Source: Candidatus Poribacteria bacterium
GTDB lineage: Bacteria > Poribacteria > WGA-4E > UBA9662
NCBI GenBank assembly: GCA_036339735.1
Contig: JAYZAL010000001.1
Coordinates: 42,540-106,539 of the forward strand
Direction: 5' to 3'
DNA length: 64,000 nucleotides
Numbering within the stretch: the first letter of the stretch is position 1; every line of letters starts with the position of its first letter. This document shows, in pieces, positions 47,683 to 55,884 of the stretch. The position numbers and the translations under genes were made by a program. Under the pieces are notes generated by a model, which worked only from the letters and a program-made list of their open reading frames with translations, had not been told where the DNA came from and did no database searches.

Positions 47683-49536
47683 ATGCCACACAAAAAACGA
47701 ATCGCTCTTTGCTTAATTCTGTTTCAGTTGTTGGTTGCTGTACATAGCGAAAACTACCAAAAACAGAATATTTCTGTTTTGCCTTTTTCCGGTTGGAAAG
47801 GGAAAAATGCTGCTGGTTTTCAATCGGCATTAACTAATAAAATCATCCACCGAATAATCAATTCTCAACGGTTTAATGTTATTGATCGAGTGAACTTGGA
47901 ACGAATTATAGAAGAACAAAACCTTCAGTTATCTGGTGTTATCGACGAAAATACAGTAGTACAAGTTGGAAGATTAGCCGGTGTACAAAGGTGTATTATT
48001 GGTAATTTTACAGGTAACTCAGTTGAGTATTATCCGGCTAAAAAAAATGACCAAGGGAAAATTATACGACATAGCTACTACGAATCTAACGTTAGTGCCA
48101 CAATTCGTATGTTATCTGTCGAGAGTGGACATTACGATAAATCCGTGGAAACCTATGCTAGCGAACGGGGAGAAAATGCGGATGCGGCATTTTCAAAAGC
48201 ACTGGATAAGCTAGCTGAAGCAGTCGTTACAGAATTTGAGAGTCAATTCCCCATTCAGACTATTATCAAACGAATAGACCATTCAACTGTTACCATTGAA
48301 CGGGGTAAAGATTCGGGAATCAAAATTGGTATGGCATTCATAATCTATGGGTTCCAACCTTCACCAGACGAGATTTTCGACGAAATTATAATTAACGACG
48401 ACGTCCCCGAAGTTGGAATTATGAAAATTACTTCGATTGAAGCCCGGACAGCAAAGGGGCGTCTTTTTGGCGACTTCAGCGAAGTGATTGCAGGTAATCT
48501 AATTCGAGAAACTGATAGGCCAATCAAAATTGAAGCTAACATCTTAGAAAAGTCATTTGGTGGAATTACTATTAATGCTGGTGCTGATTTAGGGTTAACA
48601 AAAGGCACAACTTTCAAGGTTATGAAACGACAGAAAGATTTGATGGACCCGGAAACAGGCGAAGTCCATACTGATCAGTTTAAACCTGTTGGAACTGTAA
48701 TGATTACAGAGGTACACCAAACTTTTTCTCGCGGCCGAATTGCTAAAGGCCGGTACTTCATCCGTCGCGGGATGAAACTGGAACAAACAACTCCCTTTTA
48801 TGGCTGGTTGGGTTTAGCAGTTAGTTACGGTATGTTTAGCCTGCAAAGCGAAACAAACAATCGAGACAAAGAATATTTTAAAGTCGATAAATGGAACCAT
48901 ACTATCACACCAGTCTCATACACAGAGCGTGACTCATTAGTGAATAGAGGGTATGGACAGACAATTATATCAATGGATTATTCTAATAAGGATGATCTTC
49001 CACTAACTGGTTTTCTGCTTCAGGCATCGGCTTATTTAAGGAAACCAATTAGTCAAATCTCGATCGGAGCTGATTTTAATTATTATAACCTCGGTGAAGA
49101 ATCAGATTTAACATCATCAGGAATAGATTTGAAACTAAGTAAGCACTTTGGTCTTTTACCTGAAATCTTGTTTTTGAGCCCGATTATTGGTTTCGGTTTT
49201 GGGTATTGTGAACAGAAAGTTTCCGGCGACATTGTCCAATTACTTAGTCAGGGTAACGACAATAAAGTGACAGCAGAGTCCTACCATTTTATTGTTGGTC
49301 TTGATGCTAAGTTGAAATTAGGTAAGCTAGTAGCTTGGGGAAATGCTAGTTACAAAACTTTAAGTTTTACAAATTGGAAATACCAAGTAGATAGCGGCAA
49401 GAGATCTGATGATGGAAAAATCCTTACAGAGGATAAGTCAATTGATAAAAAATACGTGGTGTATCCGAGTATAAAGATACCTTATGTGGTGACTATTGGT
49501 ATAACTGGTGAATTTGACATTCACTTTTTCAACTAA
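47683..49536 (+). CDS. CsgG/HfaB-like domain protein with repeated beta domains and a probable C-terminal beta-barrel
   Basis: RFNVIDRVNLERIIEEQNLQLSG, VGRLAG; two 'I..G...G...G..F' repeats; DPETGE; amphipathic strands ending EFDIHFFN. Confidence 0.7.
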   Translation: MPHKKRIALCLILFQLLVAVHSENYQKQNISVLPFSGWKGKNAAGFQSALTNKIIHRIINSQRFNVIDRVNLERIIEEQNLQLSGVIDENTVVQVGRLAGVQRCIIGNFTGNSVEYYPAKKNDQGKIIRHSYYESNVSATIRMLSVESGHYDKSVETYASERGENADAAFSKALDKLAEAVVTEFESQFPIQTIIKRIDHSTVTIERGKDSGIKIGMAFIIYGFQPSPDEIFDEIIINDDVPEVGIMKITSIEARTAKGRLFGDFSEVIAGNLIRETDRPIKIEANILEKSFGGITINAGADLGLTKGTTFKVMKRQKDLMDPETGEVHTDQFKPVGTVMITEVHQTFSRGRIAKGRYFIRRGMKLEQTTPFYGWLGLAVSYGMFSLQSETNNRDKEYFKVDKWNHTITPVSYTERDSLVNRGYGQTIISMDYSNKDDLPLTGFLLQASAYLRKPISQISIGADFNYYNLGEESDLTSSGIDLKLSKHFGLLPEILFLSPIIGFGFGYCEQKVSGDIVQLLSQGNDNKVTAESYHFIVGLDAKLKLGKLVAWGNASYKTLSFTNWKYQVDSGKRSDDGKILTEDKSIDKKYVVYPSIKIPYVVTIGITGEFDIHFFN

Positions 49537-49551
49537 TTCTTTAAGGAATTA

Positions 49552-50988
49552 ATGATGAAAAGACTCAGTTTTTGGACATTTTTTTTTATCATTGCAATAG
49601 GTTGTAACAAAGCGAGTGTGAGAAAGACTTTTTCTGAAGATTTTGATTTGAAGCATCGATATAAAAGCCAAAATACAATGAACAAGTCAAAACGATCTGT
49701 GGTTGCGCCCGAATGGCTAATATTGAGGCCATCTAACGACCTCTATTATATTGGCATAGGTCAAGCTAATATAGATGATAATAATTATACGCAACGAGCT
49801 AAAAACCGAGCCTTAGCCCAGGTTGCTGAGGAAATTTCAGTTACGATTTCAAGTGAAATGATCAATACAGCAGTTGAAATCTCGGGCATGCTAGAAAGCG
49901 ATTTTCAAGAAGATATTCGTACTTCTACTCAGAAAGAATTAGAAGGAGTAGAAACAGTAGGTTTTTGGCAAGATCACCAATTTTATTGGGTCTACTGTAG
50001 ACTGAACAAAGCCAAATACAATGAACGACAAACTCAAAAAATCGATCAAGCCATACAAATATCATTCGACCTTTACCAAAAAGCCACAAGTCAACTCAAC
50101 GCCGGAGAATTGGCTAATGCCTTACCGTTATACTTACAAGCTCTTTTGCCTATTCAAAATTATTTGGCTCAATCGTTAACAGTTAAACAGAATCAGAATT
50201 CTACTATCCAACTACAAGACCAAATTTATCTCCGGATTCGGCAGATCTTAGGGCAAATAAGAATAAGTACTGATTCTCCCGAAATTTCCGTTAAACTAGG
50301 CCAACCCAGTTTCAGTCAGTTAAAAGTCATAGTTGAATCATCAAAACCACTAAGGCAAATACCAATTCGATTTAGCACCATCAGTCTTTCCACCGATCTT
50401 ATGTCCACTGTGTTAACTGATCGGAATGGAGTTGCTTCAATACGCATAAACCCCAAAGAATTCAATATAGAAGAGACCCAGATTGCGGAGGCAAAACTGG
50501 ATTTGTCTGCTTTAATCGGTTTTGGCCAAATTACATCGAAATATTTGGAAATGTTGATTGAGGATTTTCCAGTGCCGACTATCAAGCTTATCGTAAAGAT
50601 AATTAAACCATCAATCTGTATCAAGTCAGTCGAAACAAATATGGGCAAGTCTTCATCTGTATCATACGTAACGGAAAAAATAAAAGAAGTACTCGTAGAC
50701 AAAGGATTTACATTCAAGGAAAGTGTAGTTGAAGCCGATTTTGTAATTAATTTACATGCTAGAACAAGAGCGGGTAGCGAAGTCTTTGGCCAATTTGTAG
50801 CTTACGCCGATTTAACAATAGCCGTAACGAACACAATGACTGATCAGGAGATTTACCACCAGGGATTAGTAAACATCAAAGGTATACACACTAATTATTG
50901 GGAAGCAGGGCTAAAAGCGTTGGAAAAAGCTAGAAATCAGATAAACGTAGAAGTCACACCCAATTTACTTATAGCAATCCAAAAATAG
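49552..50988 (+). CDS. LPP20-family lipoprotein
   Basis: Lipobox IAIGC; PEW, YYIGIG, AKNRALAQVAEEISVTISS. Confidence 0.72.
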   Translation: MMKRLSFWTFFFIIAIGCNKASVRKTFSEDFDLKHRYKSQNTMNKSKRSVVAPEWLILRPSNDLYYIGIGQANIDDNNYTQRAKNRALAQVAEEISVTISSEMINTAVEISGMLESDFQEDIRTSTQKELEGVETVGFWQDHQFYWVYCRLNKAKYNERQTQKIDQAIQISFDLYQKATSQLNAGELANALPLYLQALLPIQNYLAQSLTVKQNQNSTIQLQDQIYLRIRQILGQIRISTDSPEISVKLGQPSFSQLKVIVESSKPLRQIPIRFSTISLSTDLMSTVLTDRNGVASIRINPKEFNIEETQIAEAKLDLSALIGFGQITSKYLEMLIEDFPVPTIKLIVKIIKPSICIKSVETNMGKSSSVSYVTEKIKEVLVDKGFTFKESVVEADFVINLHARTRAGSEVFGQFVAYADLTIAVTNTMTDQEIYHQGLVNIKGIHTNYWEAGLKALEKARNQINVEVTPNLLIAIQK

Positions 50989-51009
50989 TTGATTGATTAT
51001 CGATAAACG

Positions 51010-52539
51010 CTAACCATTTTCCCTGAAGTGGATAACTTTATTGATTGCGTTAATATATGCTTTTGCGCTAGCCTCTATAATATCAGTACTAGCTCCGTGT
51101 CCAACAAATGAACGCCCTTTTTCTTTTACTTTGACAGTTACTTCTCCAATCGCATCCATTCCTTCTGTTACAGAACGGATTTGATAATCTGATAATGTTG
51201 GAGAAAAACCTGTGACGCGTGAAATGGCCTTATAAGTTGCATCGACTGGGCCATCTCCTGTAGCTGCTTCAGTCACTGCTCCCTCTGCGGTTGTTATACC
51301 AACTGTAGCAGTTGAAGTAATCTGATTCCCGCTGAAAATCTGAATGTGATCAAATTGGTATCGAGATTCACTCACTAGAACAGTTTCTGATTCGTCTTGC
51401 ATAATTGCTTCAAGATCAGCATCATGTACTTCTTTCTTTTTGTCAGCCAAAGAGAGAAAACGTTCGTAGACCGAATCGAGTTGTTCTGTTTCAATTTCAT
51501 AACCTAGTACAGCTAGGCGATGACGCAATGCATTTCGGCCAGATCTTGGACTCAATATAATCTGGCTCTCTTGCAAACCAACCACTGTGGGGTTAATAAT
51601 CTCAAAAGTATCTCTCTGCTTAATCACTCCATCTTGATGAATGCCAGAACTATGGGCAAAGGCATTGGCTCCGACAATAGCTTTATTGGCTGCTACTGGC
51701 ATTCCCATAGTCCGACTTACCAGCCGGCTAATAGGTACAATCTCAGTAGTATCAACATCAGTATGAACATCTGCAAAATGATCACGCCGAGTACGAATGG
51801 CCATAACAATTTCTTCCATCGAGGTGTTACCAGCACGTTCACCTAGTCCATTCACTGTACATTCAACTTGTCGCGCCCCATTTTTGATAGCCGCTATACT
51901 ATTGGCAACGGCCAACCCCAAATCGTTATGACAATGAACACTAATAATAACTTGATTAATATTATTAACGTTCTGTTTTATCTTAGCAATCAACTTACCA
52001 AATTCTGAAGGTATAGCATATCCAACGGTATCAGGTATATTGATAATGCTAGCGCCTGCTTCAATAGTAGCTTCTATGATCTCAAAAAGATAAACGGGAT
52101 CAGTCCGAGCAGCGTCCATCGGCGAAAATTCGACTGTCGGGCACAAATCTCGTGCATACGCAACTGATTCAATCGACGACTTCAGAATAGTGTCTTCATC
52201 TGAACGCATTATTCCCTTGATGTGAATCTCTGATGTACCAACAAAAGTGTGTATTCTAGGTCGTTTGGCTTCCCTGATTGCCTCCCATGCATCAGTAATA
52301 TCCTTTTCAATAATTCTTGATAATGCACAGATTTCTGGGCCCTCAACTTCACTGGCAATTCGACTTACAGCTTCAAAGTCAGCAGGAGAAGAACGTGGGA
52401 AGCCCGCTTCTATAACATCCACATTCAGAGCGGATAGATGTTTTGCTATTGCAAGTTTCTCATTACCGTTTAGGGCTGCGCCAGGTGTTTGCTCTGCGTC
52501 CCGCAACGTTGTATCAAAGATCAATATTTTTTCAGACAT
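51010..52539 (-). CDS. leuA: 2-isopropylmalate synthase (LeuA family) with C-terminal regulatory domain
   Basis: [40 protein letters not shown]; start moved to MSEKILIF (RBS AGGGA). Confidence 0.88.
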
Positions 52540-52570
52540 CCGTCGATTCCCTATATGTTGCTGTTTCAAC

Positions 52571-53590
52571 TCAATCCATATCGCGACCGATAGCAGTAGC
52601 TAAATGTTTCAAATCATTCATCAAAATACTAAATTGGTCTGGAAAAAGAGACTGAACACCATCACCGGTCATCGAATTGTCTGGATCGTGGTGAACTTCT
52701 AAAATAAGGCCATCGGCACCGGCTGCAATCGAAGCTTTTGACATTGGAGCAACATAACTACGTATTCCTGTCCCATGACTTGGGTCTGAAATAATTGGTA
52801 AATGGCTGAGTTCTTTGATCGCAGGAATGGCATTAAGATCAAGTGTGTTTCGAGTATGCGTTTCAAAAGTACGAATTCCTCTTTCGCATAGGATAACGTT
52901 GGGGTTACCTTCAGATAGAATATATTCAGCTGCCAACAACCATTCTTCAATAGTTGAAGAGAAACCACGTTTTAGTATGACAGGCTTTTGTTGTTTCCCA
53001 ACTTCACGCAACAGATAGAAATTTTGCATGTTTCGTGTACCCAACTGAAAAATATCAGTATATTGGCCTACCAATTCGACTTCGTGTGGAGTCATTACTT
53101 CAGTTACAATACCAAGTCCTGTTTCATTTCTAGCACAAACTAGCATTTCAAGAGCAGACTTTCCAAACCCTTGAAAACTATATGGGCCTGTTCTTGGTTT
53201 AAAAGCCCCACCTCGGATAAAATTAGCACCTGACATCTTGATCTCTTGAGCAATTCGGACAATCTGTTCAGTGTTCTCCACAGCACATGGCCCTGCAATC
53301 ACGACCAATTGTCTGCTACCGATTTTGGTTCCGTTGGACTCTATAACTGTGGGTTCATCCCGAAATTGACGGCTTGCCAGTTTATACGGCGCTGAAATTG
53401 GCATAGTACGATCGACTCCTTTCATTGACTCGATAGGTTGATTGGCCAACTTGGATTTATCTCCAATAACGCCGATAAGCGTATGTTGTTCGCCTGTTGA
53501 TTTTTGGGCTTGCAACCCAGCGGACTCAATTCTCGAGACAACCTTGTCGATGTCCTCATGTGTTGCATTAGGCTTCATAATGACAACCAT
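52571..53590 (-). CDS. aroF: DAHP synthase type I-beta with N-terminal ferredoxin-like regulatory domain
   Basis: IAGPCAVE, GGAFKPRT, LKRG, LCERGIRTFE, DPSHGTG. Confidence 0.94.
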   Translation of the reverse strand: MVVIMKPNATHEDIDKVVSRIESAGLQAQKSTGEQHTLIGVIGDKSKLANQPIESMKGVDRTMPISAPYKLASRQFRDEPTVIESNGTKIGSRQLVVIAGPCAVENTEQIVRIAQEIKMSGANFIRGGAFKPRTGPYSFQGFGKSALEMLVCARNETGLGIVTEVMTPHEVELVGQYTDIFQLGTRNMQNFYLLREVGKQQKPVILKRGFSSTIEEWLLAAEYILSEGNPNVILCERGIRTFETHTRNTLDLNAIPAIKELSHLPIISDPSHGTGIRSYVAPMSKASIAAGADGLILEVHHDPDNSMTGDGVQSLFPDQFSILMNDLKHLATAIGRDMD

Positions 53591-53657
53591 TTTTATACCC
53601 CTCTTCTATTATTTCAGTTGTATTTTCTAAACTTATATCTTTAGTACAATTTTTCGT

Positions 53658-53705
53658 AAAACCGAAAACGCCCATCACCGATTAGTACCTCTTCGATGAT
53701 GGGCG
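53658..53705 (-). terminator. Attenuator terminator upstream of aroF
   Basis: Minus strand: CGCCCATCATCGA-11nt-TCGGTGATGGGCG (13 bp, one G-U) then TTTTCGGTTTT. Confidence 0.85.
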
Positions 53706-53731
53706 CTTATCCAAGTCTTTACTGTTTGTCT

Positions 53732-53854
53732 CTATGTTGTTCCCATAACCCACTTGCGCCCGCAGTCCGAGTAATAAAAGAAATACAAAAAAAATAAACC
53801 AAGGTTCCGAGCTGCGTCAGTATCCAAGATCAGATTAGATGCGATTTTTTTCAT
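53732..53854 (-). CDS. Attenuation leader peptide, 40 aa: MKKIASNLILDTDAARNLGLFFLYFFYYSDCGRKWVMGTT
   Basis: Translated by hand; Leu/Phe/Tyr codon run at 53771-53803, between promoter and terminator of aroF-leuA. Confidence 0.82.
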   Translation of the reverse strand: MKKIASNLILDTDAARNLGLFFLYFFYYSDCGRKWVMGTT

Positions 53855-53900
53855 AGGATATCATTGGCCCACAATTGACGTACGAAGGTCAAACTTCCCT

Positions 53901-53929
53901 ATTCTAGCGAAAAGTCTAATCTGTGTCAA
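53901..53929 (-). promoter_or_regulatory. Sigma70-type promoter TTGACA-17-TAGAAT of leader-aroF-leuA
   Basis: Minus strand reads TTGACA cagattagacttttcgc TAGAAT. Confidence 0.8.
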
Positions 53930-54021
53930 GTGTTTTTAAATCTTCCGTCCTGAACCAGCTAATACATGTTAATATTAAATAATTGAGGACAACGAATTTT
54001 TAAATGAGGAATAAATAAATT

Positions 54022-54417
54022 TTGCAAAAATTTCTTTTTCTGTTACCTGTTTGGATTCATTTACTAGCAATGGCAGGAACTTTTGGAGCAACCGTTACTT
54101 GCGCCTTCTTATCACGAAGGGATCCCGAGAACCAAGATGATATAGTATGGCGTATACCACAAATGTTTTTGGGGCTAACTTTTTTAACCGGTTTGGCACT
54201 AGTATACTTACGTTTTACATCAGCAATGAACACTGGAACAGAACTAGGTATACATTTTTGGGGTCTTACCAGTTGCAAGTTGGCTTTGCTGTTTATTTCT
54301 GGCGCACTTTCGGGAATTGCTAGTAAAAAATCCAAAGCAGGTCAGGCGTCGAGTTTCCTGTGGGTAGGAGCAGCATCTATGTTTGCTGCAGCATCTTTAC
54401 TTGGTTTAAGTGTTTGA
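54022..54417 (+). CDS. Four-TM membrane protein (CopD/DUF2269-like)
   Basis: WIHLLAM, LTGL, KLAL pattern; RBS GAGGA. Confidence 0.6.
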   Translation: MQKFLFLLPVWIHLLAMAGTFGATVTCAFLSRRDPENQDDIVWRIPQMFLGLTFLTGLALVYLRFTSAMNTGTELGIHFWGLTSCKLALLFISGALSGIASKKSKAGQASSFLWVGAASMFAAASLLGLSV

Positions 54418-54420
54418 TAA

Positions 54421-55032
54421 TCAATCTGTGTCGTTTAATAGCTGGACTATCTCTTTTTTAAGTTTTTTCATAGCATATTGATCATCAGAGTTATAATAAC
54501 CCCGTATACGTTGCTGGCTATCCGAAAGAATAAAGTACGGGCTATGATTAGCAAGTTCTGTTTTCGACCCAACTTTGAAACCTTCCCAAGCTAACCGGTG
54601 GATCTCTTTTTCGTCTCCGGTCAAGAAAAACCATTTTTTATTTTCTATACCGAAGGACTCAGCATATGTTTTCAATCTTTCAGGTGAATCATAAGCTGGG
54701 TTGACTGTAATTGAAAGTGATTGGAATTTTGGATTGTTTTGGTGCTGGCGAAAGACCCTAAGTTTCTTTTGTGTCATCATAGGGCATACACTTGGGCAAG
54801 TAGTAAAAATGAAGTCAGTTAATGTTACTTTGCCCTCCATTTTATCAACCGAAAAATAACTCGAGTGTTGATCAACGAGCTCAAATTTTGGAATACCACC
54901 GAGTATGGGCAAGGCCGCTTCCTCAGGATTATCTTGAGCACGACCGATTAAAATCTGGCGAGCTAAGGCAAGTGTGCCTAGTAAAAAAACCAAAAGAATA
55001 ACTACAAATCTGAGCTTATTTCGCATTTTCAT
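54421..55032 (-). CDS. SCO family copper chaperone
   Basis: FIFTTCPSVCP (CxxxC), WFFLTG, conserved His in NHS. Confidence 0.92.
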   Translation of the reverse strand: MKMRNKLRFVVILLVFLLGTLALARQILIGRAQDNPEEAALPILGGIPKFELVDQHSSYFSVDKMEGKVTLTDFIFTTCPSVCPMMTQKKLRVFRQHQNNPKFQSLSITVNPAYDSPERLKTYAESFGIENKKWFFLTGDEKEIHRLAWEGFKVGSKTELANHSPYFILSDSQQRIRGYYNSDDQYAMKKLKKEIVQLLNDTD

Positions 55033-55086
55033 CGAATGGCATTAGTTAGACAAACTTTCTTTGGTAGCTAAACTCATCCATTAACT

Positions 55087-55884
55087 CTACCAAGCATCTC
55101 CCTCTTCGATTGCTTTTTTTACTTGGTCTTTCTCCCAAGTTTTATATTCATCATGCTCTAACACAATTAATTGGCCAATCATCTTATAGTGCCCAGATCC
55201 ACACAGTTGAGCACAACCAATCTCCCATTTGTTATTTTTCGTTGGGTTCTTAGGTGAAGTCGCAGTTGGTGTAAAAGTAACGGGAATACTTGTACCAGGA
55301 ATGGCATCTTGTTTAACACGCATCACCGGTAAAAAGAAATTATGGATGACATCGTAGCTTCCAACGTGAACTAGAACCTTTTTATCGACTGGCACATACA
55401 ACCGACCAACACTAGCAAAATCATCTTTTGCATTTGGGTCAGAACGATCTAACCCAAGCACGTTACTACTGCCATCAATCAAGGTAGGGTCAGTTTTACC
55501 AAAAACACCATCTAACCCCGGATAGTGAATGTTCCACTGAAACTGCTGGCCTAGCGCACGGACTTCTACATCATAGTCGCTACCTTCTTCGGTTGCACTA
55601 GCAACTTCCTGAATCCAAAATGGTAACGAAAAAGCAATTAGCAGTACGGCTTCAATTAGTGCGACACCAATTTCAAGGTAGCTAGAGTAATGGCTTTTAA
55701 CACCGTGATAATCAGCTTTGGGGTTTCGGTTTTGGCTAAATCGAAATAATGTATACACAAAAAAGATTCCCCAACCGACGAACAGTACTAACATTAACCA
55801 ATGGACATAAACAATTAAGTTATCAACGCTATCGCCATGCGTAGAGGCATTAATAGGCATCCAAATTTGCAAAAATGATTTCAT
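55087..55884 (-). CDS. coxB: Cytochrome c oxidase subunit II
   Basis: Two TM helices, QFQW, DVIH, CuA motif CAQLCGSGHYKM. Confidence 0.92.
   Translation of the reverse strand: MKSFLQIWMPINASTHGDSVDNLIVYVHWLMLVLFVGWGIFFVYTLFRFSQNRNPKADYHGVKSHYSSYLEIGVALIEAVLLIAFSLPFWIQEVASATEEGSDYDVEVRALGQQFQWNIHYPGLDGVFGKTDPTLIDGSSNVLGLDRSDPNAKDDFASVGRLYVPVDKKVLVHVGSYDVIHNFFLPVMRVKQDAIPGTSIPVTFTPTATSPKNPTKNNKWEIGCAQLCGSGHYKMIGQLIVLEHDEYKTWEKDQVKKAIEEGDAW

Follow-up and report, generated by a model that had tools for sequence, protein, structure and literature searches.

The 64,000-nucleotide (nt) stretch of Candidatus Poribacteria DNA analyzed here, hereafter the window, carries an aroF-leuA operon whose upstream region contains the sequence parts of a leader-peptide transcription attenuator. 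This candidate attenuator, and the amino acids that it may sense, are the subject of the present analysis. aroF encodes a 3-deoxy-D-arabino-heptulosonate 7-phosphate (DAHP) synthase and leuA encodes a 2-isopropylmalate synthase. The promoter, the leader, and both genes lie on the minus strand, and all feature coordinates are positions in the window. The features, in the order of transcription, are as follows.

53924 to 53929, minus strand: promoter -35 hexamer, TTGACA (promoter score, 11/12)
53901 to 53906, minus strand: promoter -10 hexamer, TAGAAT (promoter scan)
53732 to 53854, minus strand: leader open reading frame (ORF), 40 codons plus stop (ORF translation; homologous frame intact in 56/57 loci)
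53771 to 53803, minus strand: control codons L18-G-L-F-F-L-Y-F-F-Y-Y28 (translation)
53756 to 53770, minus strand: antiterminator strand, or region 2, TCGG-ACTGC-GGGCGC (duplex search and nascent-RNA fold)
53709 to 53755, minus strand: spacer with the ORF end, the stop codon, and a small hairpin, CAAGU...ACUUG (fold)
53666 to 53708, minus strand: intrinsic terminator hairpin (5' arm, 53708-53693; 3' arm, 53681-53666)
53657 to 53668, minus strand: U-tract, TTTTCGGTTTTT (sequence)
52571 to 53590, minus strand: aroF, DAHP synthase with an N-terminal FXD regulatory domain (PF00793, DAHP_synth_1, 2e-71; PF18152, 2.9e-24)
51010 to 52539, minus strand: leuA, 2-isopropylmalate synthase with the LeuA allosteric domain, LeuA_dimer (Pfam and NCBIfam)

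The predicted promoter, TTGACA-17-TAGAAT, scored 11 of 12 matches and ranked at the top of 10 promoter-like sites within positions 50500-55500; TTGACA-17-TAnAAT is also present in the relatives L002, L003, and L004. The leader ORF (53854-53732) begins with ATG behind a weak Shine-Dalgarno sequence and encodes MKKIASNLILDTDAARNLGLFFLYFFYYSDCGRKWVMGTT, followed by the stop codon. The spacer beyond region 2 is partly conserved in sequence inside the genus. The terminator is a 43-nt hairpin of 16 pairs (2 of them G-U) with an 11-nt loop and a predicted energy of -26.2 kcal/mol, followed by TTTTCGGTTTTT; a simple terminator scan missed it, since the loop limit of that scan was 8 nt. From the end of the U-tract to the aroF ATG (53590) there are 66 nt. 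The first-pass annotation of this DNA had proposed the promoter, the 40-codon ORF with its L-G-L-F-F-L-Y-F-F-Y-Y run, and the terminator with its U-tract ahead of aroF, and each of these parts was recovered where that annotation had placed it. At the extreme 5' end of the predicted transcript, the RNA could also form a small hairpin, GAAG..CUUC (53884-53899, minus strand), which is present in L002 as well.

The identities of both genes are secure by family cutoffs. The aroF product scored 484 bits against NF006421 (cutoff, 335), and the leuA product exceeded two equivalog cutoffs, NF002086 (748.5 versus 532 bits) and TIGR00973 (688.9 versus 598.7 bits). We considered whether this LeuA might be a benzylmalate-type enzyme of aromatic metabolism; the two equivalog scores, together with the fact that leuA is the only full-length LeuA match in the window's genome (G000), ruled this out. 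The leuA start lies 31 nt past the aroF stop codon, and leuA follows aroF in 44 of the 45 loci in which aroF identity is at least 73%, the exception being a contig end. In family f4, leuA is on the same strand but farther downstream, behind inserted genes in two genomes (G078 and G080) and behind an insert of roughly 450 nt in a third (G081), while G079 lacks a canonical leuA match and has a divergent LeuA-family gene behind aroF instead. In G080 (L136), the shared leader also precedes a second DAHP synthase gene, of the AroG/F/H type as judged by eye, which is inserted between aroF and leuA. The aroF-leuA interval was inspected in 23 loci, and neither a Leu leader nor a terminator was seen there; leuC is located elsewhere in the window's genome, alone and with no visible leader. 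In the outgroups f5 and f11, aroF and leuA are adjacent but there is no leader; the gene pair thus predates the leader, which has served both genes since it arose.

RNA data were consistent with transcription across the leader. Six metatranscriptome runs contain part of the stretch, and contigs of four of them were placed on the window. Contigs from three runs of different studies, covering 53119-53831, 53237-53865, and 53170-53877, extend from the leader through the terminator into aroF, and the aroF-leuA junction is bridged in two metatranscriptome runs. Together with the 44 of 45 loci, these contigs, each bridging a part of the unit, uphold the earlier proposal that the leader stands before a conserved aroF-leuA pair. 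The interval 53896-54100, upstream of the -10 box, was covered in none of the four RNA runs, though DNA runs do cover it; together with the contig ends at 53831, 53865, and 53877, this gap weakly suggests a transcript start a short way downstream of the -10 box. The overall pattern fits a transcript that begins at the predicted promoter and is able to read through the terminator. The X18 contig that starts at 53655 and the uncovered parts are not evidence either way. The same stretch of DNA is present in marine and seawater metagenome runs, and the closest named records for aroF are metagenome-assembled genomes (MAGs) labeled Candidatus Poribacteria, at 78% identity.

Conservation of the leader in relatives

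The feature stands out from chance because it is conserved in relatives, not because of the statistics of the window. A whole-genome search matched aroF, at E values up to 1e-90, in 151 of 176 genomes of the phylum. Orthologues at 73-97% identity were found in families f1, f2, and f3, and across the phylum they occur in 6/6 f1, 11/11 f3, and 111/112 f2 genomes as well as in four f4 genera; more distant matches are those of f7 (69%), f5 (62-64%), and f11 (60%). The leader comparison covered 57 distinct loci, all with an aroF identity of at least 69%, which represent 12 lineages that share the order and class of the window's genome. Excluded before any counts were made were L112 (a contig end with 128 nt upstream), L031-L033 (duplicate genomes), L121-L129 (distant aroF paralogues of 53-55% identity with neither leader nor leuA), and L139-L142 (outgroups with aroF-leuA but no leader).

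A homologue of the terminator, with the core CCCnnnnTCGA...TCGATGnTGGG, was found by pattern in 56 of the 57 loci, and the remaining locus, L150, has a terminator variant altered on both arms. Over the 56 loci, the 11 core pairs of the stem are paired in 95-100% of cases, with both-sided changes at 4 positions. A script found an ATG-initiated ORF in 54 loci, and in all of them the aromatic-rich frame is the longest of those that end shortly before the terminator; the start is ATG in 55 loci (L150 included) and GTG in L023. Despite indels, an intact leader frame is present in 56 of the 57 loci. The exception, L120 (contig C134 of genome G006), belongs to a second aroF copy in a MAG and has an in-frame TGA at leader codon 5, which might reflect strain variation, an assembly error, or decay of the copy. 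Counted from the first ATG, leader peptides range from 33 to 79 residues, their N-terminal parts are unrelated between families, and the register of the C-terminal part is constant. That frame and C-terminal register are kept while the length changes fits a translated leader rather than an element acting as RNA alone. The first-pass annotation had taken the element for a ribosome-mediated attenuator, and the alignment of relatives agrees: the leader ORF, the antiterminator, and the terminator are conserved over the 12 lineages.

A palindromic repeat, GCAGCTTGCAA...TTGCTATT, occurs in one to three copies between the terminator and aroF in L143, L145, L146, L149, and L153 (g9 and g17). It is also found in frame within several leader ORFs, where it adds AQLAS..LLLK-like residues, and it has the look of a small mobile repeat tolerated by the leader.

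Two other explanations of the conserved parts bear on whether the ORF matters. An attenuator that works independently of the ribosome, with a protein or small ligand on the leader RNA selecting the hairpin and the ORF merely incidental, would accommodate the weak Shine-Dalgarno sequence and the fact that leader translation is so far only predicted. It would leave unexplained why the frame stays open through many indels and substitutions and why synonymous codons vary at the Leu, Tyr, and Phe positions. Moreover, the part 5' of region 2 is the most variable part of the leader and has no conserved aptamer-like structure, and Rfam gave no match at gathering score across the 64-kb window or in the loci of seven relatives, nor any match to a leader family or T-box at E up to 10 within 52000-55500. 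We regard a ribosome-independent switch as very unlikely. We attach even less probability, to the point of near dismissal, to an independent gene that encodes a small hydrophobic peptide and ends in a terminator of its own, in which case aroF-leuA would be transcribed from a separate promoter. The peptide is indeed hydrophobic and the terminator strong, but a promoter scan found no promoter-like site in the 66 nt between the terminator and aroF, and RNA contigs of three runs cross the terminator. The N-terminal two-thirds of the peptide is not conserved between families, and a conserved antiterminator overlapping the ORF would be purposeless in such a gene.

Alternative structures and a proposed mechanism

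In the window, the minimum-energy structure computed for the nascent RNA with the 3' arm omitted contains the pairing of GGGCGC (53761-53756) with GCGCCC (53706-53701), as the first-pass annotation had predicted. The best duplex between the ORF region and the 5' arm of the terminator (region 3) joins TCGG..GGGCGC to GCGCCC..TCGA at -16.3 kcal/mol, forming a 6-bp and a 4-bp helix that flank an internal loop. The region 2:region 3 pairing appeared in the nascent-RNA folds of the window and of all other lineages tried. Refolding of the alternatives thus gave both the terminator and the region 2:region 3 pairing, and the two are mutually exclusive. Scored against 100 dinucleotide shuffles, the antiterminator is strong in genus g7 of f3 (z of -2.8 to -6.1), in f2 (z mostly below -3), and in g2 (z of -2.5 to -5.5). 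Region 2 of the window is homologous in position to the strong region 2 of these relatives, and the antiterminator pairing is eroded in the window's genus.

In all lineages, the 5' end of the antiterminator directly follows the last control codon. In g1, f3, and f2, 9-10 nt separate the last conserved Tyr codon from region 2, so that a ribosome stalled a few codons earlier would leave region 2 free. In f2, the leader stop codon falls within region 2 (GGUGGUGA); a terminating ribosome would mask region 2 there, which is the textbook arrangement.

We infer the following sequence of events. Transcription would start about 7 nt after TAGAAT, and a ribosome would translate the 40-codon leader. When charged Tyr-, Phe-, or (probably) Leu-tRNA is scarce, the ribosome would stall within L18-Y28, leaving region 2 (53770-53756) free to pair with the 5' arm of the terminator as that arm emerges. 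With the arm so engaged, the terminator would not form and RNA polymerase would continue into aroF and leuA. When the supply is ample, the ribosome would run over region 2, the 16-bp terminator would form, and transcription would end near 53660. Since both enzymes retain their allosteric domains, FXD in AroF and LeuA_dimer in LeuA, each flux could still be trimmed separately, and the cell could tolerate joint control at the level of transcription.

Several observations weigh against this mechanism. The antiterminator duplex of the window was equaled or bettered by 39 of the 100 dinucleotide shuffles (z = -0.21), the fold of its whole leader is unremarkable (z = -0.39), and within its genus the antiterminator does not rise above shuffles (z of -0.21 in L001, +1.3 in L002, and -0.76 in L003). 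The GGGCGC motif is missing from the closest relative, L002, which retains the same F/Y run; this absence counts against the antiterminator motif of the first-pass annotation. The leader stop codon of the window lies 22 nt beyond region 2, and a ribosome waiting there would not cover GGGCGC. The protector stem of the first-pass annotation fared only partly well: its two strands, CGCAGCTCGG (53816-53807) and TCGGACTGCG (53770-53761), do pair in the whole-leader fold of the window, but this stem is not kept in L002, no conserved protector (1:2) stem was found, and we did not adopt it. The Shine-Dalgarno sequence, which that annotation had already called weak in the window, is weak, far from the start, or oddly spaced in all lineages. 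Finally, the RNA contigs cannot show 3' ends, and DNA carry-over in the RNA libraries is possible. Taking these points together with the conservation described above, we judge it reasonably probable that the element acts as a transcription attenuator of the classical leader-peptide type, placed ahead of the two-gene operon aroF-leuA.

Control codons and sister leaders

Which amino acids such an attenuator would sense can be addressed from the codons that precede region 2. We defined a control window as the 16 codons 5' of region 2, placed by the RNA duplex search alone and therefore blind to amino acids. Composition was averaged over 10 lineages, with the long ORFs of the window as background and the off-frame readings as a control. 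The fractions were as follows.

Leu: 0.25 of the control window, 2.7 times background; frame +1, 0.09; frame +2, 0.20
Tyr: 0.21 of the control window, 6.2 times background; frame +1, 0.04; frame +2, 0.04
Phe: 0.12 of the control window, 2.7 times background; frame +1, 0.10; frame +2, 0.11
Trp: 0.02 of the control window, 1.6 times background; frame +1, 0.011; frame +2, 0.008
Ile: 0.02 of the control window, 0.2 times background; frame +1, 0.127; frame +2, 0.036
Val: 0.03 of the control window, 0.4 times background; frame +1, 0.032; frame +2, 0.151
Met: 0.00 of the control window, 0.1 times background; frame +1, 0.020; frame +2, 0.003

Tyr is the sole enrichment that is unambiguously specific to the frame. 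All six Leu codons are in use across the lineages, which argues that the amino acid is kept and not the letters. A Leu-Tyr pair directly 5' of region 2 is seen in almost all lineages, spelled with differing Leu codons. Genus g9 (8 loci) has (Leu-Tyr)4-5 repeats, with runs such as LYLYLYLYLY and GLYLYLYLYLYSNDRW.

The aroF genes of other phyla provided a comparison. Among 73 usable loci with 48-58% aroF identity, leuA was within the locus in none, a terminator-like hairpin was present within 200 nt in 32, and 19 of those 32 had an aromatic leader ORF. By record title, the 19 leaders (among L035-L101) come from Bacillota, Chloroflexota, Planctomycetota/Brocadiaceae, Calditrichota, Rokubacteria, Methylomirabilota, and others. 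Leu makes up a mean of 3.1% of the 12 most aromatic codons of these leaders, with 13 of the 19 lacking it there altogether, as opposed to 18.8% Leu in the same measure of 11 Poribacteria-like lineages (Mann-Whitney p about 5e-5, a value that is overstated because the Poribacteria-like lineages share one origin).

In relatives, copies of this terminator scaffold are also found before tyrS, leuS, and a LeuA paralogue gene, and two of these sister copies are informative about Leu. In G079, a second attenuator on this scaffold (L135:1159-1538, minus strand of the locus) directly follows aroF and has its own promoter-like site. Its 37-codon ORF contains 12 Leu codons and no aromatic run, and the codons before region 2, LLTLGLRLDLALLRLRRL, are Leu-rich and free of aromatic residues. 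Region 2 of this copy reads TTGATGGGC, and its terminator reads AGCCCATCATC...GATGATGGGCT followed by a T-run; the gene behind it is the divergent LeuA-family gene, which scores below all NCBIfam cutoffs. In G078 (L163, minus strand, contig C9, ~103105-103133), the scaffold and a 49-codon ORF with L-S-L-A-G-L-C-L before region 2 lie 58 nt ahead of a leucyl-tRNA synthetase gene (leuS), identified by eye from its N-terminal motif. In these two copies, the codon content thus tracks the regulated gene.

The tyrS copies point the other way. The tyrS leaders of f3 (L174 and L176-L183) have two or three Tyr codons, typically in a Y-L-Y core, and zero to four Leu codons. tyrS has no link to leucine, yet its leader contains Leu, and Leu codons may therefore simply come along with the scaffold. 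Two further points weaken the case for Leu sensing: 20% Leu is read in frame +2 of this DNA, with Phe alike in all frames, and the contrast with other phyla may reflect inheritance rather than function. In most genomes of f3 and many of f2, the aroF leader comes right after tyrS, which makes for tandem attenuators in f3; in f2, no leader was seen before tyrS, except for a terminator remnant in G037.

These findings allow for an attenuator of narrower scope, which would sense Tyr, with Phe and perhaps Trp, whereas the Leu codons would be inherited filler or a result of U-rich composition and leuA would be carried along. The frame specificity of Tyr alone (0.21 versus 0.04 and 0.04) and the Leu codons of the tyrS leaders are as such an attenuator would have them; so is the low Leu content that f3 and f7 show in their 12 most aromatic codons (0.09 and 0.00, respectively), as is the F-Y-F motif published for the Corynebacterium glutamicum aroR leader, as far as the accessible text goes. 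It is harder to reconcile with a Leu content of 25% beside the antiterminator where Ile, Val, and Met reach 0-3%, with the use of all six Leu codons, or with the strict Leu-Tyr alternation of g9, given that the Tyr-only leaders of other phyla are Y/F runs with 3% Leu. It also does not account for the reuse of the scaffold, with a Leu-rich and aromatic-free leader, before the LeuA paralogue gene of G079. We consider an aromatic-only attenuator possible but rather unlikely. The first-pass annotation had proposed that the F/Y/L control codons mirror both genes; the enrichment of Tyr, Phe, and Leu (6.2-, 2.7-, and 2.7-fold) stands, while the Leu part of the proposal is weakened by the tyrS leaders and by the off-frame Leu of 9% and 20%. 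On balance, we put the sensing of Leu as a second input at a little over an even chance, likely but unproven.

The broader proposal is that one leader reads both Tyr/Phe and Leu tRNA charging and co-controls the first committed enzymes of the two pathways; that it does so across several Poribacteria-like families, in one genus through (Leu-Tyr)n repeats; and that it belongs to a set of scaffold-sharing attenuators (tyrS, leuS, and the LeuA paralogue gene) with exchanged codons. For this proposal as a whole our confidence is about evenly balanced.

In the window's genome, the terminator scaffold was found only once, and the f2-type scaffold pattern detected the aroF copy only in five f2 genomes. 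A crude scan of the window's genome for leader attenuators returned 37 candidates, among which the aroF leader was the only one recognized as convincing, the rest having not been checked individually; the top candidate, an LLLLL mini-ORF on contig C15, was dropped because it lies within a longer frame. The genes around the operon have no apparent link to it. Upstream of the promoter (54421-55884, minus strand) are genes for SCO1/SenC and a COX2-domain protein, and two lipoprotein-like genes (CsgG/LpoB-like and LPP20; 47683-50988, plus strand) are convergent with leuA.

Known attenuators and significance

The nearest functional counterpart is in C. glutamicum, where an F-Y-F leader peptide before aroF was predicted in 2013 together with a separate LLLL leader before leuA (PMC4046766). 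Under its later name, aroR, the aroF leader is reported to respond when Phe is limiting (PMC11802643, describing Neshat et al. 2014, J Biotechnol 190:55). Both systems place a leader peptide with Phe/Tyr codons and an attenuator before a DAHP synthase gene. As far as the available portions of these sources describe aroR, the likeness is functional only: the phylum is another one, the aroR motif is a short F-Y-F without Leu whereas the Poribacteria leader mixes Tyr, Phe, and Leu, and leuA of C. glutamicum is preceded by an LLLL leader of its own whereas a single leader serves aroF and leuA in Poribacteria. C. glutamicum leaders are described as functioning without a ribosome-binding site (PMC11802643, in the part available), which bears on the weak Shine-Dalgarno sequence of the Poribacteria leader. 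The pheL-pheA and pheM-pheST systems of Escherichia coli likewise combine a short ORF with aromatic runs, a terminator/antiterminator pair, and the sensing of charged tRNA (PMC11802643 and PMC3082878). According to the accessible parts of those accounts, pheL and pheM have single-amino-acid runs in 14-15 codons, while the Poribacteria leader has 40 codons with mixed Tyr, Phe, and Leu and precedes other genes. A precedent for joint control of leucine and aromatic genes is LtbR of C. glutamicum, which represses both leuCD and the trp operon but, as the available text presents it, is a protein repressor and not an RNA-ribosome switch (PMC11802643).

The first-pass annotation did not recall a description of the combination seen here. 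That is too broad for the aromatic half, since a Phe/Tyr leader before aroF is published, at least in the accessible portions of the C. glutamicum reports. In the literature searched, which included few subscription journals, we found no description of the Poribacteria aroF-leuA leader family or of a joint aromatic and Leu leader.

Attenuators that read more than one amino acid are familiar from enterobacteria, in ilvL (ilvGMEDA; Leu, Val, and Ile) and thrL (Thr and Ile), and the Poribacteria leader resembles them in having control codons for several amino acids in one leader. The amino acids read by ilvL and thrL come from one branched pathway encoded by the operon, whereas the inputs considered here, aromatic amino acids and Leu, come from unrelated pathways that share an operon. 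The reuse of one RNA scaffold before different genes, with control codons exchanged, has a parallel in the leu/phe leader motif of Lactococcus, an Rfam family reportedly described by Weinberg et al. in 2010, each copy of which is said to sense one amino acid. The two are unlike in sequence, in that no Rfam leader family matched the Poribacteria leader.

The mechanism proposed is a textbook one; the pairing of the aromatic and leucine pathways is unusual. If Leu is not sensed, the element would be one more Tyr/Phe leader attenuator of aroF. Even such leaders may mark a gap in Rfam, given the Tyr/Phe aroF leaders in 19 of the 73 loci of other phyla and the lack of any matching family in the Rfam scan, which covered the window and the loci of seven relatives. 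If Leu is a true input, attenuation would couple two unrelated pathways merely through their shared operon, with the feedback domains of the two enzymes undoing the cross talk, and such wiring would fall outside the textbook set of attenuators. This cross-pathway reading of Tyr/Phe and Leu is plausible, though not settled. To our knowledge, regulation in Poribacteria is essentially unknown, and the leader would add an RNA-level control system to this uncultured candidate phylum of marine and sponge-associated bacteria.

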